Assembly (NCBI GenBank): GCA_963741925.1
Contig: CAVUJU010000002.1
Location: forward strand, 595,978 to 659,977
Direction of reading: 5' to 3'
DNA length: 64,000 bases
Origin: an uncultured Acidobacteriota bacterium
GTDB lineage: Bacteria > Acidobacteriota > Thermoanaerobaculia > Multivoradales > DATKCC01
A program made the position numbers and the translations under genes. This document shows, piece after piece, positions 1 through 61,126 of the stretch. Each line of letters starts with the position of its first letter. Position 1 is the first letter of the stretch. The notes beneath the pieces are model-generated. The model saw only the letters and a list, made by a program, of their open reading frames with translations. It made no database searches and was not told the DNA's origin.

Positions 1-297
1 CGCCCTCGGCGAGAATGTCCTGCATTCTTTCCACGCGAACACGATGGGGCTCAACCCGCTGGCGGGCCACTGCGACCATCTCCGATGCCGAGTCGATCCC
101 GTGGGCGTCGATGCCGGCCGCGATCGCCTTCTCCAGGAGCACACCCGTGCCGCAGCCGACGTCCAGCAGCCGACAGGAGTCCGGTGCGACGTCGAGCGCC
201 GCTTCGGTGACGAAGGCCTGATCGTCTCGGTAGTGGTCCGGCGGCGTGTGCAGGTCGTAGCGGTGCGCAAACTCGCCAAACAGCCTATAGGCCTCAC
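1..297 (-). CDS. class I SAM-dependent methyltransferase (5' part only; gene continues past window start)
   Basis: Reverse-strand translation VSEAYRLFGEFAHRYDLHTPPDHY...LLDVGCGTGVLLEKA (GxGxG motif I). The GTG start at 297 overlaps the upstream TGA (GTGA). Confidence 0.6.
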   Translation of the reverse strand, partial: MRPIGCLASLRTATTCTRRRTTTETIRPSSPKRRSTSHRTPVGCWTSAAARVCSWRRRSRPASTPTGSTRHRRWSQWPASGLSPIVFAWKECRTFSPRA

Positions 298-3200
298 TCA
301 CTGGCAGAGCCCTCCGCTCTTGCCGCGGGCATCGTGGTGAACGCCTTCACCGCCGCCTCGGTCACCTCCAGAGGTCGAGACCGGTTCGAAGAGGCAAGCG
401 GAGCGAGGCAGTCGAGAAGCCGCTCCAACGTGCGTTTCTGGCGCGGCGTCGCCGGCTTCAGCTTGCAGAGGCCGCCCAACTTCCGTTTCTCGTCCCGGAG
501 ACTGGCCCACTCCGCGAGGTTCGAGTCGGCAAGAGCCAGGAGCCGCGCGTAGCGTCGAAACCCGGTTGCCTCGCAGCGCGGGCAGGGCGTCTCCTTCGAG
601 CTCTCCTGGAGGCTGCGCGCCCACTCGTCGTCAGGGCTCCTCTGCGATTCATCCAGGAGGCGGCGAAAGAGGCCGTCCCAGCGCAGCCAGGAGGACACCT
701 GGGCCGGGTTCGAGCCGCGCTTCTTGAGAAACGAGCCTGGGCCCGGACGCGACCAGAAACCGTAGAGGATCAGTTCGCGGCCTCTGCCGTCGAGGCGTTC
801 GAAGGGGGTGCGGGCCGTCCAGAGACCCTCCCGGGCCATCCGGCTGAGGAACGGCTTGAGCTCGTTGCGGCGGACGCCCTTCATCACGGCATTGGCCTGC
901 GGCGTCAAGAACCCTTCCTCCTCCGGCGCCAACCGTCGATTCGCAACGACCAGCGCCTCGTCTAGCGTTCTGACCGTCCGGCGACCGCCGCACATGAGGC
1001 AGCGACCGGCGGGTTCGAGCCGCGAGAACTGAACCGGCACCGGCGCCATCGGCCCCACCAGGCCTCTCTCGAGGTCGAGTAGACGTTCCGAGCTGGCGGC
1101 GACCAGACGGCCGTGGGCGTCCCGAAGCTCCACGTAGCGGGAGCCGACGGCGAAGGCGTCTCGAAGCACCTCGGCCCTCTCCCTCCGCCCGCCGGTCTTC
1201 GGCACGAGGCGGTCCCCCGTCGCCCGAAGCCTCCGGACATCCAAGCTCGCTTTTCGAGACGCCCACGGCTCGCCCTTCTCGGTCACCAGCCGGAGGCCTT
1301 CCTTCGACAGATGATCCTCGGTGGTCTTGACCACCGATTGGGGGAGGTCCACTCCCCAGACCTGGAGATCCGTCAGGAAGGGATGGATTGCCAGCCATCC
1401 CCCGGGGACGATCTCCCATTCCGCGAGAAGGTCGTCGAACGCTTCGCCAGGCGGCTTGCGCAGGTCGAGCAGGAGCTTGGGGAGCTCAAGGTCCAGTCCG
1501 GCTACCTCCCAGGCCTCGGCGCCCGCCTCGGCTAGCTCGTAGAGGACCACCACGGGTTCAGCGAGGCCGTCTTCGGCCAAGGCCTGGGGAACTCCGTCTC
1601 CTTGGATGAGCGTTCGCAGGAGGGAGCGGGTCCTGGAAACCTGCTCCGGCACGGACAGCTTCTTCCCGCCGACTCGAGGTCGGGAACCGGCCGGCTTCTC
1701 GGGCTTCGGCAACTTGCCGGCGAGAGCGCGCCCTGTCGGCGTCGGAGCCTTCTCGAGCCGGCCAGGGGGACCGGAGAACACGATCTGCCCTCCATTTGGG
1801 CCACTGCCCGGCCCGAACTCGAGGACCCAGTCCGCGGCTCGAATCAAGCTGAGATCGTGCTCGACCATGACGATCGTGTTCGCCCCGTCCTCGAGGAGTC
1901 GCTCGAGCGCGCTGGCGAGGCGCCGAACATCCTCGCGATGAAGCCCGACCGCCGGCTCGTCGAGGAGGTAGATCGTGTGCTTCCCTACCGACCCACTCAG
2001 GTGCATCGCCAGGCGCAGGCGCTGGACTTCACCTCCGCTCAAGCTGTCCAGACGCCGGCCGAGCGCAACGTAGCCGATACCGAGGTCGCACATGCCGCTG
2101 ATCAAGGGCTCGGAGATGCCGAACGTGTCGACCAGGCGGCCGAGCCGATCGACTGGCATCTCGAGGAGCTCTTGCACGTTGGTGCCTGCCACGCGGACCG
2201 ACAGCACCTCATGCGTGTAGCGCGAGCCGCCACAGCGTGGGCAGACGGAGAACCGGCTACCGTCTTCCACCTCCCCCAGGCCGGCGCAGACCGGACACCG
2301 GCCGTTGCCGGCGTTGACACCGAAATCGCTCGGCGACAGTCGTTCCCGACGGGCGGCCGGCGAGGATCCGAAGGTCTTGCGAATGGCGTCGAAGTCGCTT
2401 GAAAAGGTGGCAACGAGACTTCTGCGGTTGGCTGGCGGTGTCGCCTGGTCAAGTGCGACGATCTCCTGAAGGGAGCTTAGCCCGGAGATCGACTTCCAGC
2501 GACCGCGGCGAAGCGAGAATTCCTCAGCGTCGTCCCCCACCTCCTGAAGCAAGGCCGGGGCGAGCACCCCCCTGAGGAAGCTCGACTTGCCTGAGCCGGA
2601 GACGCCACAGATGCAAGTGAGCCGGCCGAGGGGAATCTCACAGTCGACATCCTCCAGGTTGTAGATCGAAGCGCCGCAGACTTCGATCTTCGGATGGTCG
2701 CGGGCGATCTTCGAGGGCTGCCGCAGCCGATCCTCTCCTGAGGGCCGTGGCCAGTTGCGCCGTGGGCCGGCGTAGACGACCTCGCCGCCCTTCGAGGCCG
2801 CGCCAGGCCCTAGCTCGACGAGCCAATCCGCTGCCTCCCAAAGAGTCTCGCGATGCTCGTTGAGAATGACCGTATGGTCGTCGCGCAGCCGGTCGAAGGC
2901 GGCGGCTAGCGGAGCCAGGTCGGACTCGTGGAGCCCCCGGGCCGGTTCGTCGAGAAGCAGGCACAGGCCGCGTTCCCCGGCGTCGAGAACACGCGCGAGT
3001 CGGACTCTACGGCTTTCCCCCTTGCTCACCTCGATCATGCTTCGGTCTCCGGTGAGATAGCCGAGGCCGACCGAGATGAGAGACGAGGCATGCCTGCGGA
3101 GGTGTCGGACAAAAGGGACTCCTTCACGGGGGACAGCCTGTACGAGATCTCCCTGGTCCGCCGTCAGGTCGAGAACCTGGCGGAAGGTCATGGCGAGAAT

Positions 3201-4568
3201 CTCGGCGATGCCGTACCTACCGACACGTAGCGCTCTCGCCTGGAAGGACCAGCGCGTCCCGCCGCAGTAGCTGCACGGCCCGACCTCGACGAAGGCACCC
3301 AGGCGCTCGCCGGCCTTGGTCTTTCCCGCCACCTTCTCGAACACGATCTCTTCGAACCCGGCGAAGGGCCGTGGCCTGCCGATCTTGCGACCGGAGGCGT
3401 CGCGATCGAAGACGGGCTCGTCGCCGCTCCCGCCCAGTACGAGAGCTCGGGCGTCGTCGGAGAGCTTCGACCAGGGGATGTCCGGAGAGAAGCGGTGCAT
3501 GCCCCGCAGGCCTTCGATTGTCTCATGCTGAACATTCACATACTTGTAGTTCTTCTCCGTCCAGATCGCGAATGCGCCGTCTCGCATGGAACGTTCCGGG
3601 CGCGAAACGAGGCTCTCCTCGTCGAGTCGGTAGTCCACGCCTGTCCCATGACAGTTGGTGCAGGCCCCGCTCAGCTCATGATCCGGGGCGTTGAACGAGA
3701 GTAGATGCGGAGATGGCGGCGCGAACACTCCCGGAGTCTCTGGGTGGACCCAATGTTTCGTCGAATCGAGGCGAGCTCCGAAGGGCCCCATGAGGTCCGG
3801 GTTGGACGACTCGGGCAGCATGACGACCACCGAGCCCTTGGAGGCCGCGAAGGCGAGCTCCAACATCTTGCGCAACGCCTTCCTCTGGCCAGGGCCATTG
3901 ACTTCGATCTCCCCGATCGATGCCTCGATGGTGTGCCGCACGTTTGGGTTAAGTGGCTTGAACTCGGTCGTGGGGATCGAGCGGCCAGCCTCACGGATCG
4001 ACGCGGGGTCGGTCTCGCTGCGGACCACAAGCTGCTCGATACCCTTAGATGCCAGCCGCCGAACCGCGATGCGGCCGTCCGTTCGCTCGTTCCGGATGGG
4101 AGTGGCCCAGACCTCGGCGGTGCCCCGGTAGTGTTTGGCAATCCAGCGGGAGTATGTCTCCGCCGAGGGCGGTGGCACCTCGGCTCGGGCGCGCTCGGAG
4201 TACGGCTTGGAGGCGAGGACGAATAGCCGGCGAAGCACCGACAGGAAACCCGTGGCCGTGCCGACGGTTGTCCTGACGCTCGGCTGGAAGCCGCGCTGCC
4301 CTACCAGGACTGTCGGCGGCATCCTGCCGACAAAGGCCCGCACGTCGTCGCGTTCGAGGTCATCCTGCGTGGCTCCCAGGAACAGGCGGGTCCGGCGTGC
4401 TCCCTCGGCCGCCAGCGTGTCCGCAAGAAGGGAGCTCTTCCCTGATCCGGAGACTCCCGTAACGACAGAGATTCTTCCCAACGGGAAGGCGACATCGACG
4501 TTCTTCAGGTTGTTGGCGTCGCCACCGACGACTTCGATCGCTTCCGAGCTGCGAGGACGTGCCGTCAC
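294..4568 (-). CDS. UvrA-like double ABC ATPase (~975 aa core) fused to a ~450-aa C-terminal extension of unknown function
   Basis: N-terminus IEVVGGDANNLKNVDVAFPLGRISVVTGVSGSGKSSLL and second module IEVCGASIYNLEDVDCEIPLGRLTCICGVSGSGKSS match both UvrA ABC modules. It also has two LSGGE signatures, Walker B LLDEP, and zinc-finger Cys pairs (CTNCHGTG, CPVCAGLG..CPRCGGSRY). The track ORF 294..4649 is one continuous frame. The likely true start is GTG at 4568, overlapping the upstream stop (GTGA). Confidence 0.75.
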   Translation of the reverse strand: MTARPRSSEAIEVVGGDANNLKNVDVAFPLGRISVVTGVSGSGKSSLLADTLAAEGARRTRLFLGATQDDLERDDVRAFVGRMPPTVLVGQRGFQPSVRTTVGTATGFLSVLRRLFVLASKPYSERARAEVPPPSAETYSRWIAKHYRGTAEVWATPIRNERTDGRIAVRRLASKGIEQLVVRSETDPASIREAGRSIPTTEFKPLNPNVRHTIEASIGEIEVNGPGQRKALRKMLELAFAASKGSVVVMLPESSNPDLMGPFGARLDSTKHWVHPETPGVFAPPSPHLLSFNAPDHELSGACTNCHGTGVDYRLDEESLVSRPERSMRDGAFAIWTEKNYKYVNVQHETIEGLRGMHRFSPDIPWSKLSDDARALVLGGSGDEPVFDRDASGRKIGRPRPFAGFEEIVFEKVAGKTKAGERLGAFVEVGPCSYCGGTRWSFQARALRVGRYGIAEILAMTFRQVLDLTADQGDLVQAVPREGVPFVRHLRRHASSLISVGLGYLTGDRSMIEVSKGESRRVRLARVLDAGERGLCLLLDEPARGLHESDLAPLAAAFDRLRDDHTVILNEHRETLWEAADWLVELGPGAASKGGEVVYAGPRRNWPRPSGEDRLRQPSKIARDHPKIEVCGASIYNLEDVDCEIPLGRLTCICGVSGSGKSSFLRGVLAPALLQEVGDDAEEFSLRRGRWKSISGLSSLQEIVALDQATPPANRRSLVATFSSDFDAIRKTFGSSPAARRERLSPSDFGVNAGNGRCPVCAGLGEVEDGSRFSVCPRCGGSRYTHEVLSVRVAGTNVQELLEMPVDRLGRLVDTFGISEPLISGMCDLGIGYVALGRRLDSLSGGEVQRLRLAMHLSGSVGKHTIYLLDEPAVGLHREDVRRLASALERLLEDGANTIVMVEHDLSLIRAADWVLEFGPGSGPNGGQIVFSGPPGRLEKAPTPTGRALAGKLPKPEKPAGSRPRVGGKKLSVPEQVSRTRSLLRTLIQGDGVPQALAEDGLAEPVVVLYELAEAGAEAWEVAGLDLELPKLLLDLRKPPGEAFDDLLAEWEIVPGGWLAIHPFLTDLQVWGVDLPQSVVKTTEDHLSKEGLRLVTEKGEPWASRKASLDVRRLRATGDRLVPKTGGRRERAEVLRDAFAVGSRYVELRDAHGRLVAASSERLLDLERGLVGPMAPVPVQFSRLEPAGRCLMCGGRRTVRTLDEALVVANRRLAPEEEGFLTPQANAVMKGVRRNELKPFLSRMAREGLWTARTPFERLDGRGRELILYGFWSRPGPGSFLKKRGSNPAQVSSWLRWDGLFRRLLDESQRSPDDEWARSLQESSKETPCPRCEATGFRRYARLLALADSNLAEWASLRDEKRKLGGLCKLKPATPRQKRTLERLLDCLAPLASSNRSRPLEVTEAAVKAFTTMPAARAEGSASE

Positions 4569-5443
4569 GCCACAGGTTCCCCGAGGTGAAGGACGAGGAC
4601 GGACCGGGAGTCGAACTCGGTGGGAAATCGCGTGAACCGCACCGAGCAAGCGCCTCGGTAATGGAGTGCGGTGCGGTTCGACATGAGCACCGTATCGCCT
4701 GGGCGGGTGTGGAAAGGGACCGAGACATCCAGCGCAGCCCGGTGGATCGTGTCGATCATCGTCTCGAGGCCAGGTAGCGGAGCGTTAAGACGCTTGCAGG
4801 CGACGCGGAGGCTCGCTGGGTGATAGCGGATCGTCCGCTCGTTCACGAGCCGCCCTTGCCAGATCGCGGACGAGTGCTCTTGGGCCAAAGTGATCTCGGA
4901 TTCGGTCAGGAACGTCAGCGTGGCAACGTCTGCGGGGGCATCTCTCCTCAGCCGCGCGAGCAAGTCGGGCAGGAAGGCGACCCTCTGCTCCGCATACTCG
5001 GGGCCCCCCGGGTCTTCGATTTCGCATTGGAGCGCCGTGCAGCAGGGCGGCCTCGCAGAGACATTCGCATCAGTGTGGAACTCGCCAGCTTGCGTAGTAT
5101 GTGAAAGCTCCTTCGTCCATGGCGACATTCGGAAGCGCTTGACGATCCGGCCCGGGGGATAGGTCTCGAAAGAAGCGCCGAGCGCGCAGCTCGCAAGGAG
5201 CAGGGATCGCCCCCCATCCACCTGGAGGCTCCGGACCACGGCGTAGCCGCAATCGGCGATCGTTGTGCGTACGTGCTCGGAGAAGCCCTTCCAAGACTCC
5301 AAACGCTGGATGCGTGCCGCTAGGTGGCCTCCAAGTGCCTCTCGCTCTGCCTCCTCTAGGCAGTCGAAGCGCCCTGCCAGGTGGCAAATCTCGCACCTCA
5401 GATCCGCGCTGACCTGAATCTCAGGAAGTAGCCGCGCGGACAT
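4565..5443 (-). CDS. TauD/TfdA-family Fe(II)/2-oxoglutarate dioxygenase
   Basis: 292 aa with an HxD...H facial triad context (GEFHTDAN ... TALHYRG) typical of the TauD family. GC is lower and codons atypical (CTA, TTG, GCA). Confidence 0.55.
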   Translation of the reverse strand: MSARLLPEIQVSADLRCEICHLAGRFDCLEEAEREALGGHLAARIQRLESWKGFSEHVRTTIADCGYAVVRSLQVDGGRSLLLASCALGASFETYPPGRIVKRFRMSPWTKELSHTTQAGEFHTDANVSARPPCCTALQCEIEDPGGPEYAEQRVAFLPDLLARLRRDAPADVATLTFLTESEITLAQEHSSAIWQGRLVNERTIRYHPASLRVACKRLNAPLPGLETMIDTIHRAALDVSVPFHTRPGDTVLMSNRTALHYRGACSVRFTRFPTEFDSRSVLVLHLGEPVA

Positions 5444-6146
5444 CGGCCACCTGGAGACGGAAGATCAGTTTCTGCCGGTAGTGGTGCTCGAGCATGGTTC
5501 GCACGTCCGGGTAAGTGAACTCGGCGTTGAGCGGATCGTAGGTCACCCACCCCGATCGGCGCAGAGGTTGCACCGAAGGCAGAAGTCCCGCCTCAGACGC
5601 AGCCCTCATCACATCCAGCGGAGCGTGATCGTAGACCTGGTGGCCGGCGGCGACCAAGGTCTTTCTCCACTCCTGCCACAGTGGGTTCTCGGCGTGGGCA
5701 CCCAGCACGACATAGGCGACACCGCTTGGAGCCAAGACCCTGCGAATCCGCCCCATCGCCTCTCGAAGATCGTGCTCGAGGTACAGCTCCTCGTGGCTCG
5801 TAACTAGATCCACGACACCGTCGGGAATCTGGCCCCAGTCGCAGGAGTCGAGAAGCCTGACTCGCGCCGAGAGAGACGCGAGGCGTCGGCTGGCGCGACT
5901 GCGGGCGTCGCCCAGCGGCTCGACTCCGAAGATCTGGACCGGGCGAAAGCGGCGGGCCAGAGCCTCGAGAAGGCCTCCAGTATGGCAGCCGATGTCCAGG
6001 ATCACTCGCGGTTCAGCTTGGGAGTCCGTTTCGACATGCCTGATCACAGACGCCCAGAATGCCTCGTTGGCCCGAGGCAAGCCTTCATCGAGCGCAGGGT
6101 CGCCGAAGAAGGTCCGAGGTTCCGAGCCGGCGGCCTTCAAGGGCAT
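5421..6146 (-). CDS. class I SAM-dependent methyltransferase
   Basis: Motif I VILDIGCHTGGLLEALA. Internal start MPLKAAG at 6146 overlaps the upstream gene's stop (ATGCCCTTGA). Its stop overlaps the dioxygenase start. Confidence 0.6.
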   Translation of the reverse strand: MPLKAAGSEPRTFFGDPALDEGLPRANEAFWASVIRHVETDSQAEPRVILDIGCHTGGLLEALARRFRPVQIFGVEPLGDARSRASRRLASLSARVRLLDSCDWGQIPDGVVDLVTSHEELYLEHDLREAMGRIRRVLAPSGVAYVVLGAHAENPLWQEWRKTLVAAGHQVYDHAPLDVMRAASEAGLLPSVQPLRRSGWVTYDPLNAEFTYPDVRTMLEHHYRQKLIFRLQVADVRAATS

Positions 6147-6622
6147 CGCTGGGAGGAACAGCCTCGCGCCCTGGTGTCGCCGGCAGTGGGATCGATTCCG
6201 AAGTGGAGGATGAACTTCTCGACGGAGGCGCGAAAAGTGCGCTCCAATGCGGCTTCGTCCTCTGGGCCCCGCATCCCGAAATACGGGAAGTGATGAAGGA
6301 ACTCGCCGAAGACCTCGTCGCAATCGCGCGCATAGGCACGTGTATCGAGAATATGAGCGTGCCAGAAGGTGTCGATCGGCCCGGTGGGGCAGACCTTCTC
6401 GTCGCGATATCGGGCTGCTAGAGCGAGGAACTTTCTGTAGAGATCCTCGACCTCGTCGCAGAACTCGGGCGCCCAGCCTTTCTCCTCGTTCAATTTCCTC
6501 TTGAGCAGGCCGAAATCGAGCTTATCGACGCGATCGAGCGCCTGCTGGAGGGCCTCGTCGATGCCGACCATCGCCTGCGCGGCCTCGTAGGAGATCGGGC
6601 CATCTTGGTTGAACTCAGGCAT
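6137..6622 (-). CDS. DUF1399-like (glycine-rich-domain-protein-like) protein, possible metal-binding HxH/HH motifs
   Basis: 161 aa from ATG 6622, preceded by GGAGGAGG about 12 nt upstream. The motif CPTGPIDTFWHAHILDTRAYARDC resembles the DUF1399 signature. Confidence 0.4.
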   Translation of the reverse strand: MPEFNQDGPISYEAAQAMVGIDEALQQALDRVDKLDFGLLKRKLNEEKGWAPEFCDEVEDLYRKFLALAARYRDEKVCPTGPIDTFWHAHILDTRAYARDCDEVFGEFLHHFPYFGMRGPEDEAALERTFRASVEKFILHFGIDPTAGDTRARGCSSQRCP

Positions 6623-6856
6623 GTCGTGGGCTTCCCTCCTCCGGTGAATCGGTCGAGCGGGCTCACCAGCGTGCATCGCACGGAGCCGGCTTCTGACTCT
6701 GATGGGATGGCGTGGGTCTTCGTTCCAAAGCGAGTATAAGACAGGCCGCGGCCCGCACCAAACCGGCAGGCACCCAATCTACCGCACGGCGACCACCGAC
6801 CCTGCTGGCTTGACGGACGAGCCCGACGACGAGCTCCCGGGTGCTAGCATCCCACC

Positions 6857-7201
6857 ATGGTCGAGATCGAGGCCGTCTCTGCGCCGCTGGTGCTGTCCGT
6901 CGTGGGCGAGCTCGCCCGGGCGCTTCGGGAGCGGTTCGGCGGCTCGGTGGTCGACGTGCGGCTCTTCGGGTCGTTCGCGCGGGCCGAGGCCGACGAGGAG
7001 TCGGACGTGGATGTCGCGGTCGTGCTGGATCGGGTCGACTGGAAGACCCGCTGCCAGGTGATCGACCTCGCCACGGATACCGGCCTCCCCCACGACCTCC
7101 GGATCTCGCCGACGATCTTCGAGCGCGAGACCTTCGAGCGCTGGCGGGCGCAGGAGCGGCCCCTGGTCATGGACATCCTGCGCGACGGGGTGCCCCTGTG
7201 A
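6857..7201 (+). CDS. minimal nucleotidyltransferase (MNT) antitoxin-like protein
   Basis: Contains LFGSFARAEADEESDVDVAVVL (the GS..D.D nucleotidyltransferase fold motif), 114 aa. Confidence 0.7.
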   Translation: MVEIEAVSAPLVLSVVGELARALRERFGGSVVDVRLFGSFARAEADEESDVDVAVVLDRVDWKTRCQVIDLATDTGLPHDLRISPTIFERETFERWRAQERPLVMDILRDGVPL

Positions 7202-7588
7202 CCGGCGAGGGCCGGAGTCAATCGGCCGCCGCGGAGCTCGGTCTCGCGGACGAGGAGCTCCGCGCCGCCGGAGAAGCTCCTGGCCGCCGGCTTTCCCCGG
7301 ATCGCCCTCGCCCGCGCCTACTTCGCGCTCTTCCACGCCGTCCGGGCCCGACTCTACGCCGAGGGCCTCGAGCCCCGGACTCACGCCGGCGTGCAGCACC
7401 TGTGGAACGTCCACCTGGTGAGAACCGGGGTGTACGGCCCGGCGACCTCGCGCCTCCTGGCCCGGCTCCAGAAGTTCCGCGAGGAGGCCGACTACGCCCA
7501 GGCCTTCGTCGTCGACGAGGCGGGGGCGCGCGAGGAGATCGAGGCGGCCCGCGGGCTCGTGGAGAGAATCCGCGGCGACCTGGTCTGA
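7198..7588 (+). pseudogene. HEPN-domain toxin partner of the MNT, interrupted by a +1 frameshift near 7268
   Basis: The GTG at 7198 overlaps the MNT TGA (GTGA). Frame 1 gives VTGEGRSQSAAAELGLADEELRAAG. Frame 2 then gives EKLLAAGFPRIALARAYFALFHAVRARLYAEGLEPRTHAGVQHLWN...EEADYAQAF...VERIRGDLV, which is HEPN-like. Deleting one G in gccgccGgagaag restores a continuous HEPN ORF. Confidence 0.6.
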
Positions 7589-7598
7589 CCTCCCTCCC

Positions 7599-10022
<2,424 letters not shown>

Positions 10023-10097
10023 CGACGCGTCTCCTCCTCCCCTCTAACGCACGAGGCCGCGCGAGGTTGCGAAACGGGGGCGAACGCCGGGCGGCCA

Positions 10098-10260
10098 AGT
10101 GACCCGTCAACCGTCAAGTGACGTGTCCTGGCGGTCCCTCCCGCCGCTGGCGGCGTTGCTCCTCCTCGACGTAGGCACCGCTACGCCTGCGTCGGAGCGC
10201 CTGGCCAGCGACGAGAAATCCTCGCCAGATACCCTGTCACTTGACGGTTGACGGGTCACT
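10098..10260. repeat. perfect 25-bp inverted repeat pair (AGTGACCCGTCAACCGTCAAGTGAC) separated by 113 bp
   Basis: Positions 10098-10122 and 10236-10260 are exact reverse complements. Each arm contains a tandem GTCAAC/GTCAAG half-site. Confidence 0.85.
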
Positions 10261-10540
10261 AGCCGGCCGGCCCGTCGTTCTCGGGCTCGCCCGCGCCCGT
10301 CACCTCGGCGAGCAGGGCGCGGGCCTCCTCCTCGTCCTCCCGCGGCACCCGGAGGACCGCCCCGAGCCCCCGCTTGCCGAAGAAGCCGGGCGTCGTCAGG
10401 GGAAAGAGGCCGAGCGAGGACTCCCCCTCGACGACGAAGGGGATGTCGGCCGAGGCGAGCACCGACTTCGCGAGGCCGAGCTCGGCCATGTCGTGGGTCT
10501 GGAGCAGCTCGACCCAGGCTTCGCTCCCACCGCCGGCCAT
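10259..10540 (-). CDS. DUF2007-like small protein
   Basis: 93 aa (MAGGGSEAWVELLQTHDMAELGLAKSVLASADIPFVVEGE...). Its ATG lies 2 nt after the gdhA stop. Confidence 0.45.
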   Translation of the reverse strand: MAGGGSEAWVELLQTHDMAELGLAKSVLASADIPFVVEGESSLGLFPLTTPGFFGKRGLGAVLRVPREDEEEARALLAEVTGAGEPENDGPAG

Positions 10541-10542
10541 GG

Positions 10543-11880
10543 TCACATCACCCCGTAGGCGAGCATGGCGTCGGCCACCTTGACGAAGCCGGCGACGTTC
10601 GCCCCCTTGACGTAGTTGACCCGGCCGTTGTCGCGGCCGTACTCGACGCACTGCTCGTGGATGCGCCGCATGATCCGCTGCAGCCGCTCGTCGACCTGCT
10701 CGCGGGTCCAGTTGAGGCGGATCGAGTTCTGGGTCATCTCGAGCCCGGAGATCGCCACGCCGCCGGCGTTGGCCGCCTTGCCGGGGCCGTAGAGGATCCC
10801 CGCCTCCTCGAAGCGGTGGGCCGCCTGCCAGTTGGCGGGCATGTTGGCGCCCTCGGAGACCAGGCCGCAGCCGTTGGCCAGCAGCCGCCCGGCGGCCTCC
10901 TCGTCGATCTCGTTCTGGGTGGCGCACGGGAAGGCCATGTCGCACGGCACCTTCCAGGGGTGCTCGCCGGCGTGGAACTCGCAGCCGTACTCGTCGGCGA
11001 AGCTCTCGAGGCTCGAGCGGCGGGCGGTCTTGAGCTCGATGACGAAGTCGAGCATCTCGGGGGTCAGGCCGTCCGGGACGTAGATGAACCCGGAGCGGTC
11101 CGAGAGGGTCACCACCCGGCCGCCCAGCTCCATGAGCTTCTGGGCGGTGTACTGCGAGACGTTGCCCGAGCCCGAGATCACGCAGCGCTTGCCCTCGACG
11201 TCCTCGCCGTGCTGGCGCAGCATGCTCTGGGCGAAGTAGACGCAGCCGAAGCCGGTCGCCTCGGTGCGCACGAAGCTGCCGCCGTAGGAGACGCCCTTGC
11301 CGGTCATGGCGCCGGTCCACTCGTTCTGGAGGCGCCGGTACTGGCCGAACAGGTAGCCAATCTCCCGGCTGCCCACGTTGATGTCGCCCGCCGGCACGTC
11401 GACGTCCTTGCCGATGTGGCGGAAGAGCTCGCTCATGAAGGACTGGCAGAAGCGCATCACCTCCATGTCCGAGCGGCCGTGGGGATCGAAGTCCGAGCCC
11501 CCCTTGGCGCCCCCCAGCGGCAGGGTGGTGAGGCTGTTCTTGAAGGTCTGCTCGAAGGCGAGGAACTTGAGCACCGAGAGGTTGACCGAGCTGTCGAACC
11601 GAAGGCCCCCCTTGTAGGGACCGATGGCGCCGTTGAACTGCACCCGGTAGCCCCGGTTGACCTGCACCTCCCCCTGGTCGTCCTGCCAGCAGACCCGGAA
11701 GGAGAGGATCCGGTCGGCCTCGGTCATGCGCTCGAAGATCTTCTCCGCCTCGTAGCGCGGGTTCTGGTTGATGAAGGGGATCACCTTCTCGGCGACTTCG
11801 CGGACGGCCTGGTGGAACTCGGTCTCACCCGGGTTGCGCCGCATGAGGGACGCCATGAACGCATCGAGGTCCATCGCCAT
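10543..11880 (-). CDS. gdhA: NADP-specific glutamate dehydrogenase
   Basis: 445 aa with canonical GDH motifs (KGGLRF, GGAKGG, GSGNVSQY) and full-length similarity to GdhA. Confidence 0.95.
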   Translation of the reverse strand: MAMDLDAFMASLMRRNPGETEFHQAVREVAEKVIPFINQNPRYEAEKIFERMTEADRILSFRVCWQDDQGEVQVNRGYRVQFNGAIGPYKGGLRFDSSVNLSVLKFLAFEQTFKNSLTTLPLGGAKGGSDFDPHGRSDMEVMRFCQSFMSELFRHIGKDVDVPAGDINVGSREIGYLFGQYRRLQNEWTGAMTGKGVSYGGSFVRTEATGFGCVYFAQSMLRQHGEDVEGKRCVISGSGNVSQYTAQKLMELGGRVVTLSDRSGFIYVPDGLTPEMLDFVIELKTARRSSLESFADEYGCEFHAGEHPWKVPCDMAFPCATQNEIDEEAAGRLLANGCGLVSEGANMPANWQAAHRFEEAGILYGPGKAANAGGVAISGLEMTQNSIRLNWTREQVDERLQRIMRRIHEQCVEYGRDNGRVNYVKGANVAGFVKVADAMLAYGVM

Positions 11881-12059
11881 GGGATCGGGGTCCTCCGTCT
11901 GGGGTGTGAATCGGGATGACGCAGTGGCGATCGGAGGAGCCGACCGCCCATCGGCTGGGTGTCTCGGGGGTTTTTCCTAGTCTGCCACAGATCGATCCAC
12001 GGGGCGAGCCGCCCGCGCCGCCACCGCCGCCACCGCCGCCGCGACGAGGGCGAAGCCGT

Positions 12060-12938
12060 TCACTCCGGGGCCGTCGCCGGGTCGAGGATCCAGCCCTCGG
12101 CCGGGTCGGCCCCGGGGGGGATGCCGAAGCCGTCGTCGCGGCGGGCCCAGGCCCAGGCGGCCTGGACGGCTCCGAGGACCGCGTCGAGCAGGTCGCCACG
12201 GGGGTCGTCGATCGCCCCGGCGGCCAGGAAGTGGCCGATCTCGACCGTCACGCCGTAGCCCGCGGCGAGGCGCGGCGAGCGCAGGCCTTCGAGGAGCTTG
12301 CGGCGGGCGTCGCGGCGGGCCTGCGCCTGGCTCGGCTTGGCGTCCTTGTAGGGCCGCTTGCCGATCAGGTGGCGGGCGACCAGCGCCGGGTAGATCTCGA
12401 GGACGGTCCGCGGGTCGCCGGTCGGGCGGCAGGGGCGGACGTCGAGGGGAGCCTGGAGCAGCCGGGGCGCCCCTTCGTAGAACATCCGGGCGAGGGGTGG
12501 GCGGACCCACTTCATGGGGCTCTTGGCCCGGGCGAGCCGGTCCGTCGGCCGCAGGTGCTCCTTGTCCCCCGCGGGCCGAGAGGCCCGGTACATCTCGAGC
12601 AGCTCGCCCCACTCGACCTTGGTCATGGCGGCCACGCGCTGAACGCAGCCCTCCCAGCTCGCGGGCCACTCCAGGTCGCGCAGCAGGCGCCGCGGCTGGC
12701 CGAACGGGAAGTCCATGCCGGCCACCCAGGGGCCGGGCCGCTCGAGGCCGCGATCGAGCTGGGCGAAGCTCGTCAGGCGCAGCAGGTCGCGCACCCGGAG
12801 CCGGTCGCCCTCGAGCTCGCACTCGGCCACCGCGATCGGCTTCGAGCGGCTCGGCGCGGAGGTGAAGTCGACGCCGTAGACGCGCACGGGCGGCAGTGTA
12901 CCGGAGCCACCGCCGCGAGCCTGTAGACTCTCGCCCAT
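12060..12938 (-). CDS. DUF429-like (RNase H-fold) protein
   Basis: 292 aa, N-terminus VRVYGVDFTSAPSRSKPIAVAECE. Its start codon shares the CATG with the divergent znuC-like start at 12937. Confidence 0.4.
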   Translation of the reverse strand: MGESLQARGGGSGTLPPVRVYGVDFTSAPSRSKPIAVAECELEGDRLRVRDLLRLTSFAQLDRGLERPGPWVAGMDFPFGQPRRLLRDLEWPASWEGCVQRVAAMTKVEWGELLEMYRASRPAGDKEHLRPTDRLARAKSPMKWVRPPLARMFYEGAPRLLQAPLDVRPCRPTGDPRTVLEIYPALVARHLIGKRPYKDAKPSQAQARRDARRKLLEGLRSPRLAAGYGVTVEIGHFLAAGAIDDPRGDLLDAVLGAVQAAWAWARRDDGFGIPPGADPAEGWILDPATAPE

Positions 12939-13689
12939 GCCCGCCGCGCACGAGCCCCTGATCGTAGCCGAAGGGGTGACCTTCGGCTACGGCGACGAGG
13001 CCGTGCTCCGCGACGTCGACCTGACCGTCCACCGCGACGACTTCCTGGCCATCCTGGGGCCCAACGGGGGCGGCAAGACCACCCTGGTCAAGGTGCTCCT
13101 GGGGCTCCTCGAGCCGTGGGACGGCACCGTGCACCGTCACACCTCGGGCCGCCGTGGCGCGCTGGGCTACGTGCCGCAGCTCGCCGAGTTCGACCGGCGC
13201 TTCCCGCTCCGGGTCCTCGACCTGGTGCTCATGGGCCGCCTCGGCCTGCGCGGCGCCTTTCGGCGCTACACCGCGGAGGACCGGGCGGCGGCCGAGCGCG
13301 CGATCGAGACGTTCGGCCTCGGCCCGCTCGCCCGGCTCCCCATCGACCGGCTCTCGGGCGGCCAGCTCCAGCGCGCGCTCATCGCCCGGGCGCTCGCCGC
13401 CGAGCCGGAGCTCCTGATCCTCGACGAGCCCATGGCGTCGATCGACGCCGAGAGCCGCAAGGTGCTGCTCGAGACCCTCGAACGGCTCGGCCGCGAGATC
13501 CCGATCGTGGTGGTGACCCACGACCTGACACCGCTGGCCGGCGTGGTGCGCCAGATCGCCTGCGTCAACCGGCGCCTCTTCTACCACCCGGGGGGCGAGC
13601 TCGACCGGGAGATGCTCGAGGAGGTCTACGGCTGCCCGGTGGAGCTGATCGCCCACGGTGTGCCGCACCGGGTGCTGGTGGACCACTGA
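12937..13689 (+). CDS. metal (Zn/Mn-type) ABC transporter ATP-binding protein
   Basis: Walker A GPNGGGKTT, signature LSGGQLQR, Walker B LLILDEP, H-loop VVVTHD. Confidence 0.85.
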   Translation: MPAAHEPLIVAEGVTFGYGDEAVLRDVDLTVHRDDFLAILGPNGGGKTTLVKVLLGLLEPWDGTVHRHTSGRRGALGYVPQLAEFDRRFPLRVLDLVLMGRLGLRGAFRRYTAEDRAAAERAIETFGLGPLARLPIDRLSGGQLQRALIARALAAEPELLILDEPMASIDAESRKVLLETLERLGREIPIVVVTHDLTPLAGVVRQIACVNRRLFYHPGGELDREMLEEVYGCPVELIAHGVPHRVLVDH

Positions 13690-13750
13690 TGCCCAATCGG
13701 GAACGCTGCGCGGCGAACGATTCCCGCCTTGCGGCGGAGCGAGGCCGGGC

Positions 13751-13882
13751 GGCGGCGTCCCTCTCCCCCCGCGAGGGTGGGAGAGGGATCGAGGGTGAGG
13801 GGGGCGGTCCGATGGCGGCGGCGTCCCTCTCCCCCCGCGAGGGTGGGAGAGGGATCGAGGGTGAGGGGGGCGGTCCGGTCTG
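13751..13882. repeat. 2 x 66-bp tandem repeat with internal palindrome, member of the dispersed C/G-rich repeat family
   Basis: ggcggcgtccctctccccccgcgagggtgggagagggatcgagggtgaggggggcggtccg appears twice with period 66. It fills the znuC-znuB intercistronic gap and abuts the znuB-like ATG. Confidence 0.85.
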
Positions 13883-14713
13883 ATGCTCCACCTGCTCTCC
13901 TATGACTTCCTGCGCCATGCGGTCGTGGCCGGCCTGCTGGCCGCCGTGCTCTGCGGCGTCGTCGGCACCTTCGTGGTGGTCAAGCGCCTCGTCTTCCTGG
14001 CGGGCGGCGTCGCCCACGCCGCGTTCGGCGGCCTCGGGGTGTGCTACTTCCTCGGCGTCGACCCCCGCCTCGGGGCGGCGGCGGTGGCGGTGGTCTCGGC
14101 CCTGGCACTGGCCGGGCCGGGGCGCGAGCGCGGGCGCTCCCACGACGCGGTGATCGGCATCCTCTGGGCCGTGGGCATGGCCGTGGGCGTGGTCTTCCTC
14201 TACAAGACTCCGGGCTACGCCCCGAACCTGATGGCCTACCTGTTCGGCAACATCCTGACCGTCGGCGCCAGCGACGTCGCCCTGACGCTGGGCCTGGTGG
14301 TCGTGGTGGTGGCGCTCTTCGCCCTCTTCTTCAAGGAGAGCGTCGCGGTCGCCTTCGACGAGGAGTTCGCGGCGGTGCAGGGCGTGCCGGTGCGCTGGGC
14401 GATGGTCGTCCTGATGCTGCTCGCCGCCCTGTCGGTCGTCTTCCTGATCCAGCTCGTCGGGATCCTCCTGGTGATCGCCCTGCTCACCATCCCGCCGGTG
14501 ATCGGCCTGCGGATCGCCCGGAGCTTCCCGGCCGTGGTCGGCCTGTCGATCGGGATCGGGGTGCTCATGACCCAGACGGGCCTCGCCCTGTCGTACCTCT
14601 ACGACCTCCCCTCCGGCCCGGCCATCGTCCTCGTGGGCGCGGCCCTCCTGGTCGTGGTCGACGTGGCCCGGCGCGCCGGCGCCCGCGGCCGCCGCGTCAG
14701 CGACGTGGGCTGA
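13883..14713 (+). CDS. metal ABC transporter permease (ZnuB-like)
   Basis: 276 aa, eight hydrophobic segments, ABC-3 family architecture. Confidence 0.8.
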   Translation: MLHLLSYDFLRHAVVAGLLAAVLCGVVGTFVVVKRLVFLAGGVAHAAFGGLGVCYFLGVDPRLGAAAVAVVSALALAGPGRERGRSHDAVIGILWAVGMAVGVVFLYKTPGYAPNLMAYLFGNILTVGASDVALTLGLVVVVVALFALFFKESVAVAFDEEFAAVQGVPVRWAMVVLMLLAALSVVFLIQLVGILLVIALLTIPPVIGLRIARSFPAVVGLSIGIGVLMTQTGLALSYLYDLPSGPAIVLVGAALLVVVDVARRAGARGRRVSDVG

Positions 14714-47293: not shown

Positions 47294-48205
<912 letters not shown>

Positions 48206-48235
48206 CGGCCGGGATGCTACCGCGCCGGCGGCGGC

Positions 48236-48475
48236 CTACGAGCTCTCTTCTCGCGCCTGGTCGATCAGCCGGACGAGGGCTTCCGCCGCATCCTTCTGGG
48301 AGGACGGCAGAGTTTCCCACAAGCTCCAGAAGGCCTCCTCCATGAGCTCGTAGGCCGGGTCCCCCTTGATCTGCGCCAACGCCATCAGGCGGCGCTTGGC
48401 GTCGGGTGTCAGTCGGGCCGTGAACGGCTCGAGGTCCCGGACCCGTCCGGCGCTTCCTGCTTTCTTCGCCGCCAT
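48236..48475 (-). CDS. 79-aa hypothetical protein (first ~37 codons duplicated at 61984-62092)
   Basis: MAAKKAGSAGRVRDLEPFTARLTPDAKRRLMALAQIKGD... Confidence 0.4.
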   Translation of the reverse strand: MAAKKAGSAGRVRDLEPFTARLTPDAKRRLMALAQIKGDPAYELMEEAFWSLWETLPSSQKDAAEALVRLIDQAREESS

Positions 48476-48599
48476 GGGCTAGAGCTTGGAAGAGAAGAGA
48501 CCTCGTTGTCAAGACAGTCGCCTGGTTGGATTCTTGGCGCTTTGATTCCTGTCCTGCGGCTCGGCCGGTTGACCCTTCCTGCTCGAGACCGCGAGATCC

Positions 48600-49280
48600 G
48601 GTTTCGCCGCCTTCGCTCCGAGAGGAGGAAGCCCCGGGAGTCGTAGTTGAAGAGCCGGGTCTGGGTGAACGAGGTCCCGGCGGCGTTCTTCGCCGTCTGG
48701 CTGACCCGCGCGAGGCGCGAACCCACGTCATAGGAATAGGTCGTCGTCGAGTCGCTGCCGTTCGGGTTCGCCGGCTCGAAGACCTGGTAGAGCCGCCCCT
48801 GGCGGTCGTAGATCTCGGTCGTGGTCGCCGAGGACTCGGTGACCGCCGTGCCGTTCCAGGCGGTGCCGACCTTCACCGTGCGATCGACCTGCCGGACGCC
48901 GTGGTAGGTCAGGGTCACGTCGTGGGCCGAGCCGTCGGGCGGCTGGATCAGCGTCGGGCGGCCGAAGGGGTCGAAGTTTCGATAGATCGTCGCGGAATTC
49001 GTCGCCCACCCGGTCTTCGACCTCACCCAGCCCGCCGCGTTGTAGTTGGTCGCCCGGCTCGAGATCGTGCCGTCGGCCATCGTCCGGCGCTCGAGGGAGA
49101 CCCGGCCCAGGCCGTCGAAGTCGAGCTCCCGGGTCGAGAGGGGCGAGCCGCCGCCGTGGGGCTTGCGGTAGATCCAGACCTTGGGCGGGTCGGTCGGGGC
49201 GCTGTAGAGGAACTGGGTCCGCCCTTCCTGGGCCGGCAGGACCAGGGTCGGCCGCCCGAGGACGTGTCCGGTTGGCAATC
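48600..49280 (-). pseudogene. truncated RHS/YD-repeat gene fragment (no start, no toxin tip)
   Basis: Encodes ...VLGRPTLVLPAQEGRTQFLYSAPTDPPKVWIYRKPHGGGSPL...FNYDSRGFLLSER, near-identical to the internal parts of 56199-61102 and 52259-55135, then diverges into non-coding read-through. Confidence 0.7.
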
Positions 49281-51315
49281 GGGATAGGCCCGGGCGAGCA
49301 AGCCCGCCCGGGTCCCCCCACAGATCCGGACGTGCGGATTTCCCGCATCCGGCTCCTCGTGACACGGGTTCGCTGCACGACGTCAAGCGGCGTGGACGAT
49401 CTTCGGCCGCGGCAAGGGGTAGGCGCCGAGGAGGCGGACGAACCGCTCCCAAGGCATCGACCTCTTGCCCGACCGCCGGTCGAGCCACTTGCGCCACTCG
49501 CGCGTGACCTGGCGGTAGAAGTTGTCGAGTGCGTGGAAGTTGCCGGTAATGCCGTAGTAACCGTAGTGGCCCTGCAGCGCTCGCGACAGCCGTCGCTGCT
49601 GCGTCGCCACGGGGTCGTGACGGCCCTGCCGACACCGTTCCCGCATCCGACTCATCGACCGAGCAAACCGACTCGCGGCCGTCGTGCGCTTGACCACCCA
49701 CGACCCTCGCTGGCGCCCACCCTTGCCCCAGAAGTGCGTGAACCCGAGGAAGACGAAGGTGCCCGGACCCTCGGGCCCGGACCCGTCGCTCCCCCACCGT
49801 GGCCGGCGGAAGCGCACCCGTCGCGTCTTCTCCGGGTGCAGGCGCAGACCGAAGCGGGCGAGCCGCTTCGGCAGCACCTCTTCCACCCGACGGGCGTCGT
49901 GCTCGTCGGCGAAGACGATCACCAGATCGTCCGCATACCGCACCAGCACAGCGCGCCCACGAAGCCGCGGTTGGACCTCTTCCTCCCACCACCGGTCCAC
50001 CACCTCGTGAAGGTAGACGTTGGCCAGCAAGGGCGAGATGACGCCTCCCTGCGGAGTCCCCGCCTCGGGGTGACGTACACGCCCCTCTTCCATCACACCC
50101 GCCTGCAGCCACTTGCCAATTGCCCTCCGGATCACGCCGTCGCGCACCCGGCGGTCGAGAAAAGACCTCAAGTGGTCCCGATCCAGCTCGTCGAAGAAGC
50201 TCTGGATGTCGACCTCCAGTACCCACCCACCCCCGAGCTCGGAGAGCTCCTTGCGCAGAACGCGCAGCGCATCGTGCGCCGAGCGACCGGGCCGAAAGCC
50301 GTACGAGCAGTCCAAGAAGTCCTCCTCGTAGATGGCCTCCAGCACCATCGTCACCGCACGCTGCAGCACCTTGTCTTCGAAGGTGGGGATCCCGATCGCA
50401 CGGGTCTCCGACCCGGTGCCTTTCGGAATGTGAGCCCGCTGGACCGGCGGCGCTCGGTAGAGGCCTGACTTGAAGCGGTCGAGAAGCGACCGGAGGTTGC
50501 CCCCGAGGTTCTCCTCGTACTGCTTCGCCGTCCGGCCGTCGATGCCTGGCGCTCCGTCCTTGCGGGTCCGGGAGTAGGCCTCCCAGAGCCAGTGCTCGTC
50601 GATGTAGTGAGCCAGACTGAGAAACGACCGCTCGTGGTCCTCCCTCGCCAGCCTCGCTATCCGACGAAGTCGCGTTGAGATGCTCCCGAGATTCGGCGAT
50701 CCCGACATCGTTCCCCTCGTTCGGTTCCGTGTCCCGGAGCCCCCCTTCCCTCCACCGGGTCCCTTGGGTCGGTTCCCCGGCTTCCACGGTACTACGGGGG
50801 CTCTCTGACTCCCCACCACCCTTCCCGCCGGGCTCGGTTTCCTTCGCCGGGCGGTACCGCCTGTGCGACCGCTCCTTCGCTCCCGGGGTGCGCGGTCGGC
50901 CTCGACCACGGGCCTGGATCTTGGGTCAGCCGGGACCCTCACCGGCACGTTCTTCGGCGGAGATGGAAGGGCCTCCCAGGTTCCTGGAGGGACCCTTGGA
51001 CGTATGCCGTGCTCTCTGACCCCGGCCGAGCCCTTGCGCCAGGCCATTGCGGCGCTCGGGTGCTGTCGCCCGTTCCACTACAAGGACGACCTCAGCGAGA
51101 CGTGCATTTCGAGGCTCCATCACACGGCCTCCGCCCTCGCTGTCTACGCTTCGCAGGTGCCCTTGCGGTGCCGCCCACGCAAGACTCGCTTCTGGCTGGT
51201 GGCCAACCTTTGCCAGGCGGGGCTCACACCCGCCGGGTCCCATCTGGAAAGTTTCCGGCTCTGTTGACCCGCGTCTACATCACCTTCCTCCTTCCCCAGG
51301 CTTTGCCTGGCGCAC
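49280..51315 (-). mobile_element. group II intron (~2.0 kb) with intron-encoded RT/maturase
   Basis: The reverse-strand 5' end is GTGCGCCAGGCAAAGCC (51315 downward). The domain V hairpin GAGCCGGATGCGGGAAATCCGCACGTCCGGATCT lies at 49302-49338, followed by a domain VI-like helix. The IEP ORF lies in the domain IV position. Confidence 0.75.
49383..50708 (-). CDS. group II intron-encoded reverse transcriptase/maturase (no En domain evident)
   Basis: RT motifs RAIGIPTFEDKVLQ, PQGGVISPLLANVYL, RYADDLVIVF and the maturase/X region WLQAG...FLGFTHFW. SD GAGGGGAA precedes the ATG at 50708. Confidence 0.85.
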   Translation of the reverse strand: MSGSPNLGSISTRLRRIARLAREDHERSFLSLAHYIDEHWLWEAYSRTRKDGAPGIDGRTAKQYEENLGGNLRSLLDRFKSGLYRAPPVQRAHIPKGTGSETRAIGIPTFEDKVLQRAVTMVLEAIYEEDFLDCSYGFRPGRSAHDALRVLRKELSELGGGWVLEVDIQSFFDELDRDHLRSFLDRRVRDGVIRRAIGKWLQAGVMEEGRVRHPEAGTPQGGVISPLLANVYLHEVVDRWWEEEVQPRLRGRAVLVRYADDLVIVFADEHDARRVEEVLPKRLARFGLRLHPEKTRRVRFRRPRWGSDGSGPEGPGTFVFLGFTHFWGKGGRQRGSWVVKRTTAASRFARSMSRMRERCRQGRHDPVATQQRRLSRALQGHYGYYGITGNFHALDNFYRQVTREWRKWLDRRSGKRSMPWERFVRLLGAYPLPRPKIVHAA

Positions 51316-51401
51316 AGTGGCTGGCACCTCTCCGCCGGCACCAGGGTCGGCCGCCCGCGAGGACGTCACCGGTTGAAAGGCGGCTGGCACCTCTCTACAG
51401 C

Positions 51402-55135: not shown

Positions 55136-55156
55136 GCCAACAGCAATAGGCCCAAC

Positions 55157-56179: not shown

Positions 56180-56198
56180 GGACGGTTTCTCTGTATCT

Positions 56199-61102: not shown

Positions 61103-61126
61103 TCGTCTCTCCGGGGCGGGGTCGGT

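Follow-up and report, generated by a model that had tools for sequence, protein, structure and literature searches.

Which kind of system is encoded by a run of overlapping genes that sets a UvrA-like protein beside two methyltransferases and a dioxygenase, and what role could it have in the genomes that carry it? This question is raised by the first 6,622 positions of a 64,000-nucleotide stretch of DNA (the window) from an uncultured Acidobacteriota bacterium (contig CAVUJU010000002.1). The five genes lying there, G1 to G5, are the first part (module A) of an eight-gene cassette that runs off the window, and the remaining genes code for a KAP/STAND-like P-loop NTPase (G6), an RdrB-like adenosine deaminase (G7) and a second TauD-family dioxygenase (G8). 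To judge from sequence comparison, the cassette is horizontally acquired or mobile and spans at least four bacterial phyla. On the basis of comparative genomics, the most likely reading, which we hold with moderate confidence, is that the whole cassette has a role in defence or conflict, either anti-phage or anti-mobile-element.

Organization and composition of the cassette

Module A is composed of five consecutive genes on the minus strand, and their frames and junctions, read directly, confirm that all of them are present where an earlier note on this DNA had placed them. G1 (6137..6622) codes for a 161-aa UCP032817/GRDP-like protein with a helical domain and a disordered C-terminal tail, G2 (5421..6146) for a 241-aa class I S-adenosylmethionine (SAM)-dependent methyltransferase, and G3 (4565..5443) for a 292-aa TauD/TfdA-family Fe(II)/2-oxoglutarate dioxygenase. 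G4 is divided into a complete UvrA-like core (residues 1-945, encoded by 1734..4568) and a C-terminal extension (residues 946-1424, encoded by 294..1733) that constitutes a third, ATPase-less UvrA-like module. G5 (1..301) is a class I SAM methyltransferase, of which the first 100 codons are in the window and which has 240 aa in full on an identical contig. The domain labels that the note had given to the five genes were borne out by Pfam and NCBIfam searches.

The genes are chained by overlaps of 10, 23, 4 and 8 nt. At the G1/G2 junction, ATGCCCTTGA, the ATG of G2 (6146-6144) and the TGA of G1 (6139-6137) overlap by 10 nt; G3 starts with an ATG at 5443 and the stop of G2 ends at 5421, giving 23 nt; and G3 and G4 share a GTGA (4568-4565). 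The chain of junctions is therefore as previously described, except that the G4/G5 overlap, which had also been given as GTGA, is actually GTGAGTGA, the in-frame start of G5 being a GTG at 301-299. An independent gene call on the identical contig (L023; loci are designated here by L numbers) sets G4 at 3504-7778 and G5 at 7771-8493, with the same overlap. The start of G1 (6622) is preceded by a Shine-Dalgarno-like GGAGGAGGG at 6642-6634 and by a divergent intergenic region (6623..6856), which is presumed to be the promoter region. A promoter scan of 6623-6856 found no match to the sigma-70 consensus, an Rfam scan found no Rfam family upstream of G1, and a terminator scan found operon-internal terminators not above chance.

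The window is high in guanine plus cytosine (GC) overall (~0.72-0.75 over most of its length), and the lower GC and atypical codons noticed earlier in this segment were confirmed: GC is 0.637-0.681 at positions 1-7000 versus 0.73-0.75 at 7001-10000, and third-position GC (GC3) is 0.75-0.81 in G1-G5 versus 0.94-0.98 in most flanking genes. Overlaps and GC thus support the idea of one tightly coupled, compositionally foreign operon. An exact-protein look-up led to a 14,757-bp contig, which matches the window without a difference in the 400 aligned bases of their overlap and shows what lies past window position 1: the rest of G5, a 33-nt gap, G6 (799 aa), a 4-nt gap, G7 (873 aa; 10931-13552 on L023), a 5-nt gap and G8 (250 aa), after which comes a convergent gene. 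On L023 the eight genes take up 13 kb (1450-14310). All eight genes are low in GC (0.56-0.69 vs 0.74 in the flank), and the low-GC stretch ends at an upstream pair of genes encoding an MNT nucleotidyltransferase and a HEPN protein. The earlier suggestion that the cluster continues past the window was right to the extent of these three genes, but further natural-product machinery is not what they encode, since they consist of a RADAR-like NTPase/adenosine-deaminase pair and a second TauD-family dioxygenase.

Conservation and distribution

For G3, 260 homologues were detected, nearly all of ~292 aa and with 56-72% identity. A species scan, limited to one genome per species, returned 20 loci, distributed among Acidobacteriota (Thermoanaerobaculia, which are the closest named relatives of the cassette, Bryobacterales, Pyrinomonadaceae, Blastocatellia and Vicinamibacterales), Gemmatimonadota (Longimicrobiaceae) and Pseudomonadota (Methylococcaceae and two Alphaproteobacteria), with further loci in Syntrophobacterales (Desulfobacterota). 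By tblastn, all contigs of sufficient length keep the order G1-G2-G3-G4-G5 on a single strand (19 species-representative genomes), and the C-terminal extension of G4 is present at each colinear locus. A metagenome scan added 48 loci, 24 of them long, of which 23 are colinear for G1-G5; in the sole exception (L047, 1-1316), at a contig end, G1 and G2 have the opposite orientation to a partial G3, owing either to a rearrangement or to an artefact of assembly. Altogether, G1-G5 are colinear in ~45 loci, including one plasmid. Because this colinearity is kept in other genomes, the arrangement is more than chance, and the unrelated neighbourhoods in relatives that would have spoken against a single system were not found.

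Among annotated and cultured sources, a match was found only in Azospirillum ramasamyi M2T2B2, on a mobilizable plasmid of 88 kb, in which G1-G5 and a following gene for a PhyH-family dioxygenase make up a six-gene form (NZ_CP029836.1, 8928-16709) and in which the prokaryotic genome annotation pipeline (PGAP) names both G1 and G4 'hypothetical protein'; the presence of this copy in a cultured organism makes experiments feasible. Across four phyla, identities within module A drop to 36-60%, and the best conserved of the five proteins is G1, with 57-76% identity between phyla.

The RADAR-like module and its replacements

Among the 35 loci that reach far enough, 29 have an RdrB-like gene within ~5 kb of G5. 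In a close clade G6-G7-G8 come after G5 and share its strand, and in a distant clade the same trio is convergent downstream of G5, in the order NTPase-deaminase-TauD2 and with G7 identity of ~25%; the deaminase and the second TauD gene are always adjacent. G7 is related to RdrB (PDB 8fnv, E 7.4e-9; PADLOC RdrB, E 1.2e-14), and 9 sequences show no variation in its HxH, HxGED, H, ExNPSSN and DxP motifs, so that all catalytic elements of an adenosine deaminase are intact. Enzymes of the RdrB type have (d)ATP as substrate, according to the RADAR paper (PMC9994260). G6 matches Pfam KAP_NTPase (23 bits vs a cut-off of 20), with weak STAND/AAA_16 matches, and the best PDB match of its profile is RdrA of RADAR (8hr7), with the Walker A in the same position, although only at E 1.5e-4 and over the P-loop only.

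RADAR (8fnt-8fnw, 8hr7-8hrc) pairs RdrA, an AAA+/KAP-like ATPase, with the adenosine deaminase RdrB, and the cassette resembles it in that a P-loop NTPase of ~800 aa is encoded directly upstream of an adenosine-deaminase-fold protein of ~870 aa. RADAR, however, is a self-contained two-gene (optionally three-gene) system, whereas the pair described here is either set within a group of six further conserved genes or convergent with them, a dioxygenase always follows the deaminase, and G1-G5 hold no RADAR component.

Where the pair is missing, other genes occupy its position. In L013 (11395-14709, minus strand) and L056 (~15803, minus strand) a 1,105-aa protein with WD40 repeats and a Ras-like GTPase replaces it beside the second TauD gene. 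A Rhodobacteraceae metagenome-assembled genome (L020, 10279-14262, minus strand) carries, convergent downstream of G5, a Qat-like set composed of a KAP NTPase (E 6.7e-67), a 285-aa protein and a QueC-like protein. The place of the pair is taken by a CmcI-like methyltransferase in L016, by a DNA methyltransferase-Mrr fusion in L018 and by the PhyH dioxygenase on the Azospirillum plasmid.

G4, a UvrA paralogue with a third module

The core of G4 contains two ATP-binding cassette (ABC) ATPase modules, zinc modules, an insertion (DNA-binding) domain and a UvrB-binding-domain region, and its residues 8-951 align end to end, UvrB-binding-domain region included, with the class I UvrA structures 3zqj, 2r6f and 9gxk (in Pfam, UvrA_DNA-bind at E 4e-13 and UvrA_inter at E 1.4e-3). 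Among 16 members of the family the Walker A and B motifs, both H-loops and the zinc motifs are invariant. The first ABC signature (residues 514-525) is (L/V)SEGESRR throughout these 16 members and VSKGESRR in the window copy, versus LSGGEAQR in UvrA, and the second one stays canonical; given the altered first signature, the two ATPase sites may be used asymmetrically. The extra C-terminal module, of 474 aa, has a CxxC...CxxC zinc finger and a UvrB-binding-domain-like fold and lacks the ATPase.

That this protein is a paralogue outside canonical nucleotide excision repair (NER), as the earlier note proposed, is upheld by its score against TIGR00630 (589.4 bits, under the equivalog cut-off of 729.8), by the extra module and by the 'hypothetical protein' name of the plasmid orthologue. 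A canonical NER uvrA was rejected on score, extra module and context, and the plasmid-borne orthologue and the foreign composition argue that G4 is an extra uvrA copy. With class I UvrA (TIGR00630; 3zqj, 2r6f, 3pih) it shares both ATPase sites, three zinc modules, the insertion domain and the UvrB-binding-domain region; unlike class I UvrA, it scores under the cut-off, has an altered signature 1 and a third module, and is encoded in a cassette of foreign composition, which in Azospirillum is carried by a plasmid.

The UvrA paralogues DrrC and Ecm16 are self-resistance factors in DNA-intercalator clusters, and G4 had been likened to them. Class II UvrA proteins (DrrC; Ecm16, 7sh1; UvrA2, 2vf7) are indeed UvrA paralogues outside NER that are encoded beside tailoring enzymes, as G4 is, but they are shorter (~750-840 aa) and have no UvrB-binding domain, whereas G4 keeps this region and adds a second copy of the fold. 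Given its end-to-end alignment with class I, class II was rejected on architecture. No genes for nonribosomal peptide synthetases, polyketide synthases or comparable enzymes of an intercalator pathway were found at any examined locus.

Methyltransferases and dioxygenases

G2 matches Methyltransf_25/11/23/12/31 in Pfam and has an unusual motif I in the family alignment, D-(I/V)-G-C-H-x-G-G. Its profile retrieves from the PDB only natural-product or peptide N-methyltransferases (E 3e-7 to 1e-5), including the plantazolicin enzyme BamL, and there are weak NCBIfam matches to ApyS and daptide methyltransferases. G5 aligns over its full length with PDB 7pd7 (E 3.6e-64, ~50% identical; E 9.5e-89 with the family profile), which is far closer to it than any other solved methyltransferase, the next ones being natural-product amine N-methyltransferases. 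The 7pd7 structure is that of CgnL, the enzyme of the myxobacterial crocagin pathway that methylates the N terminus of the peptide once this has been freed (Adam et al., Nat Chem 2023, PMC10070186). The sequence relationship suggests that CgnL may have been recruited from the G5 family of this cassette. A CgnL-like methyltransferase is the only component shared by both gene sets: the short CgnA precursor, with IYW at its end, the paired CgnB/E peptide-binding proteins, the CgnC dioxygenase, the CgnD hydrolase, the carbamoyltransferase and the ABC transporters of the crocagin cluster are absent from the conserved genes of the cassette, and neither UvrA- nor TauD-like genes were found in the supplement on the crocagin cluster.

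In Pfam and NCBIfam, G2 and G5 match Methyltransf_11/12/23/25/31 and small-molecule families, and none of the DNA-methyltransferase families (N6_N4_Mtase, N6_Mtase, DNA_methylase). A role as DNA methyltransferases, including those of restriction-modification systems, was rejected for this reason, and the DNA-modification enzymes that the earlier note had considered give way to enzymes resembling small-molecule or peptide N-methyltransferases.

G3 belongs to Pfam TauD (E 8.6e-8; 32.8 bits vs a cut-off of 27). As in other TauD/TfdA dioxygenases, the iron triad and the 2-oxoglutarate-binding arginine are present: the HxD...H...R pattern is intact, with H123, D125, H261 and R263 invariant. A search of its profile against the PDB gave no significant solved relative by sequence. 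G8 (PF02668) is 24% identical to G3, with which its WHGD and ALHDR motifs align, and its PDB matches were only spurious low-complexity ones.

G1 and its family

G1 matches GRDP-like PF07173 (22.9 bits, at the cut-off) and PF27765, UCP032817-like. Its helical domain conserves the pattern WHxHILDT..Y..DC..LHHFPYFG, and its tail ends in ...AR-G-C-S-S-Q-R-C-P. Structure prediction models the protein as a helical bundle whose last nine residues are disordered, and the model has no significant fold match. Each of the 21 cassette copies examined ends, without variation, in AR-x-C-x-x-Q-x-C-P-stop.

The family at large is very different in this respect. A full-library profile search (E <= 1e-3) retrieved 8,566 cluster representatives, with members of ~150-230 aa in which a common helical domain is followed by a hypervariable tail rich in Cys, Gly and Ser (7.7% Cys in the tails vs 1.6% in the domain). 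Tandem repeats containing Cys are common in these tails (AAWCGADGK ~10x, SCSDCSGS 4x, PKCGAPAG 5x), which often end near R-P-(S/T)-L. By their sequences, these proteins look like multi-core precursors or autocatalytic scaffolds. Furthermore, in two diverged, 45%-identical proteins (P0279, at 646-1872 of L025, and P0400) a TauD-like domain is fused to a G1-like domain and a tail, C-W-x-D-C-x-G-R-C-W-H-A-C, a hint that both parts work together. The G1 domain may serve as a leader or scaffold, may bind metal, or may be an enzyme whose substrate is its own tail; to our knowledge, no function has been assigned to this family in bacteria or plants.

A phage collection gave only distant matches to the G1 domain, and a domain of the G1 family is encoded by a 595-kb uncultured jumbo phage (LR756511.1, 158844-159224; 36% identity, E 4e-15).

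A putative role in defence

The defence or conflict role that we favour is suggested by the link of module A to the RADAR-like pair and by the company that the cassette keeps. Its flanks encode a prokaryotic Argonaute (pAgo) and a DpnII-like nuclease in L008, an Hhe/PDC-S37 helicase-nuclease (E = 0) and a SIR2-TPR protein in L017, a GmrSD-like enzyme and an ABC/SMC ATPase in L010, and an RHS toxin in L015; on the Azospirillum plasmid they comprise Dcm/DUF2357/Vsr, DUF4365 and an integrase. The DNA methyltransferase-Mrr fusion of L018 and, in the window, the MNT/HEPN pair are also counted among these defence neighbours. Patchy spread across phyla, foreign composition, plasmid carriage and defence neighbours together make up the usual signature of a defence island, and the genomic surroundings point to such islands instead of the biosynthetic cluster that had been considered for this locus. 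The conflict-type modules that stand where the RADAR-like pair is missing (WD40-Ras GTPase; KAP and QueC in the Qat-like set) are also counted in favour of this role.

A possible mechanism can be drawn from the components. G4 would be an active ATPase that scans DNA as UvrA does, and its extra module, being UvrB-binding-domain-like, would dock one of the other cassette products in place of UvrB or in addition to it. The invariant, disordered, Cys-containing tail of G1 would be a substrate or scaffold, hydroxylated by the two dioxygenases (G3 and G8) and tailored by the two N-methyltransferase-like enzymes (G2 and G5). G6 and G7 would be the executing arm which, as in RADAR, converts (d)ATP into (d)ITP when triggered. 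The predicted chemistry of the tail is backed by its invariance in the cassette versus the hypervariability of the superfamily, its modelled disorder, the TauD-G1 fusions, and the likeness of G5 to CgnL and of G2 to BamL. A more specific proposal, which we make only tentatively and think rather unlikely to hold as a whole, is that of a new immune system in which the tailored G1 tail is a cofactor-like or signalling group, used or sensed by the DNA-scanning, three-module UvrA paralogue, which would then switch on the RADAR-like ATP deaminase or other, swappable effectors such as the WD40-GTPase or Qat-like modules.

If this were a defence system, a UvrA-type scanner of DNA damage would join the known immune sensors, RADAR-type deaminases would act as a plug-in effector of a larger machine, and peptide-tailoring enzymes of the natural-product type would be tied to immunity. 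The cassette would also offer a testable handle on the family of G1 and, if the more specific proposal held, a first biochemical role for this very large UCP032817/GRDP (DUF1399) family, which reaches plants.

Several observations weigh against the defence reading. We infer this role from context and from one homologous module, and G6 and G7 are only remotely similar to RdrA and RdrB: a single-sequence search with G6 gave no RdrA match, and PADLOC gave no match to G6 at all. Since 5 of the 18 genome or plasmid loci have no such pair, module A can function in its absence. The genes beside several loci are of the housekeeping kind (hydantoinase, peptidase S9, SDR), and no relative of G3 was found in the IMG/VR viral contigs. 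As for the tail chemistry, no conserved protease or exporter was found in the cassette, and the proposed peptide chemistry is without a mechanistic tie to DNA scanning or to the deaminase. Moreover, G1 may be an enzyme or a metal-binding protein and not a substrate, because the genes of the other family members that were examined stand alone, without tailoring enzymes in their vicinity, and its conserved His/Asp/Cys pattern also fits this possibility.

Alternative explanations

The alternative that survives best, possible but not probable in our opinion, is a pathway like those of ribosomally made peptides with post-translational modifications (RiPPs), accompanied by self-resistance. G1 would be the precursor, with a C-terminal core, G2, G3, G5 and G8 would tailor it into a compound that targets DNA, and the UvrA paralogue would protect the producer, which is an established function of DrrC and Ecm16. 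A pathway of this kind refines the idea put forward in the earlier note. The match of G5 to CgnL, those of G2 to RiPP and alkaloid N-methyltransferases (with the weak ApyS and daptide ones), the position of G1 as first gene of the operon with its invariant and disordered tail, the resemblance of the repeated, Cys-containing tail motifs of the superfamily to multi-core precursors and the existence of TauD-G1 fusions are all in line with such a pathway. On the other hand, the cassette has no conserved cyclodehydratase, radical-SAM or other class-defining RiPP enzyme, just as it has no protease or exporter; partners of the CgnB/E and CgnC types are absent; and the architecture of G4 is that of class I, unlike the class II resistance proteins. 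Biosynthetic clusters are not known to contain the conserved partners of module A, a KAP-like NTPase and an RdrB-like deaminase, the neighbours of the cassette are defence genes and not biosynthetic ones, and the 140-aa domain of G1 has enzyme-like invariant His, Asp and Cys residues. If the cassette were nevertheless a biosynthetic cluster, it would make a new class of peptide-derived product with a new, UvrA-based self-protection.

Modification of nucleotides or DNA bases, which we regard as doubtful, would start from the other end of the cassette: the deaminase would make hypoxanthine nucleotides, the dioxygenases and methyltransferases would convert purines into a toxic analogue or an epigenetic mark, and the UvrA paralogue would read the state of the DNA and direct repair or an effector. 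Fungal XanA is a TauD-family purine hydroxylase, so that enzymes of this family can hydroxylate purines, and the constant adjacency of deaminase and TauD2, the (d)ATP substrate given above for RdrB-type enzymes and the retention by G4 of every DNA-scanning element of UvrA are consistent with the idea. It is not easily reconciled with the methyltransferases, which match no DNA-methyltransferase family (the PADLOC mad2 match covers a generic SAM-binding domain only) and which, in the case of G5, have as closest relatives enzymes that methylate peptide and sugar amines; nor with the persistence of module A without the deaminase in L016, L018, L020 and L026; and it leaves no role for G1, its invariant tail or the TauD-G1 fusions.

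Finally, that two unrelated systems are merely co-located, module A being an accessory metabolic or repair operon and the RADAR-like genes an independent island neighbour, would agree with the loci in which module A occurs without the pair, with the convergent, separate transcript of the pair in the distant clade and with the habit of defence islands to collect unrelated systems, but it is quite improbable in view of the adjacency in 29 of 35 loci, maintained despite the ~25% G7 identity between clades and an inversion, of the gaps of only 33, 4 and 5 nt that separate G5, G6, G7 and G8 in this genome, and of G8, which lies downstream of G7 here yet belongs with module A in deaminase-free loci.

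Comparison with other described systems

PADLOC matches G2 and G5 to mad2, and G4 to mad3 and mad8, of MADS, the methylation-associated defence system (mad1-8). These matches cover only generic SAM-binding or ABC ATPase domains, and the Mad6, Mad7 and Mad8 set, mandatory in the model of the MADS authors, is absent, as is the N6 DNA methyltransferase; MADS membership was therefore rejected. Defence based on biosynthetic enzymes (Ukko, bioRxiv 10.1101/2025.01.08.631966; prokaryotic viperins) also relies on a multi-enzyme 'metabolic' gene set in a defence context, but it has no protein families in common with the cassette, which in addition encodes an ATPase predicted to scan DNA, along with an NTPase/deaminase pair.

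Models for G1, G3 and G6 are missing from PADLOC 2.0, as are models for G1 and G3 from NCBIfam. The full-text literature, searched for UvrA paralogues in defence, UvrA together with RADAR, DUF1399, RdrA/RdrB together with a dioxygenase, and ABC ATPase classification, gave no published description of the cassette, in agreement with the earlier remark that this combination of genes was not recognised as a described system. Since the cassette lacks tested defining features of RADAR (it is not self-contained), of canonical and class II UvrA, of MADS, of restriction-modification systems and of crocagin-type clusters, and since no description was found, module A is classed, by sequence comparison, as a kind of system not yet described, with a function proposed from comparative genomics.

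Neighbouring genes and a second low-GC region

The two genes divergently transcribed from G1 on the plus strand, encoding the MNT nucleotidyltransferase (6857-7201; PF01909/PF18765) and the HEPN protein (7198-7587; PF05168), have native composition (GC3 0.95) and are absent beside the cassette in other loci. They constitute a toxin-antitoxin-like module that probably lies outside the cassette. Directly beyond the HEPN gene, the minus strand (7599-10022) encodes an 807-aa permease with MacB_PCD and duplicated FtsX domains, an architecture which we take to be typical of acidobacterial orphan permeases and which fits the Thermoanaerobaculia as the closest named relatives of the cassette.

A second stretch of lower GC, down to 0.55, extends from 47294 to 61844 of the window. 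It encodes a XerD-like tyrosine recombinase (47294-48205), a reverse transcriptase (49383-51047), two RHS-repeat proteins (52259-55135 and 56199-61844) and a TonB_C protein, and may be another mobile or conflict island.

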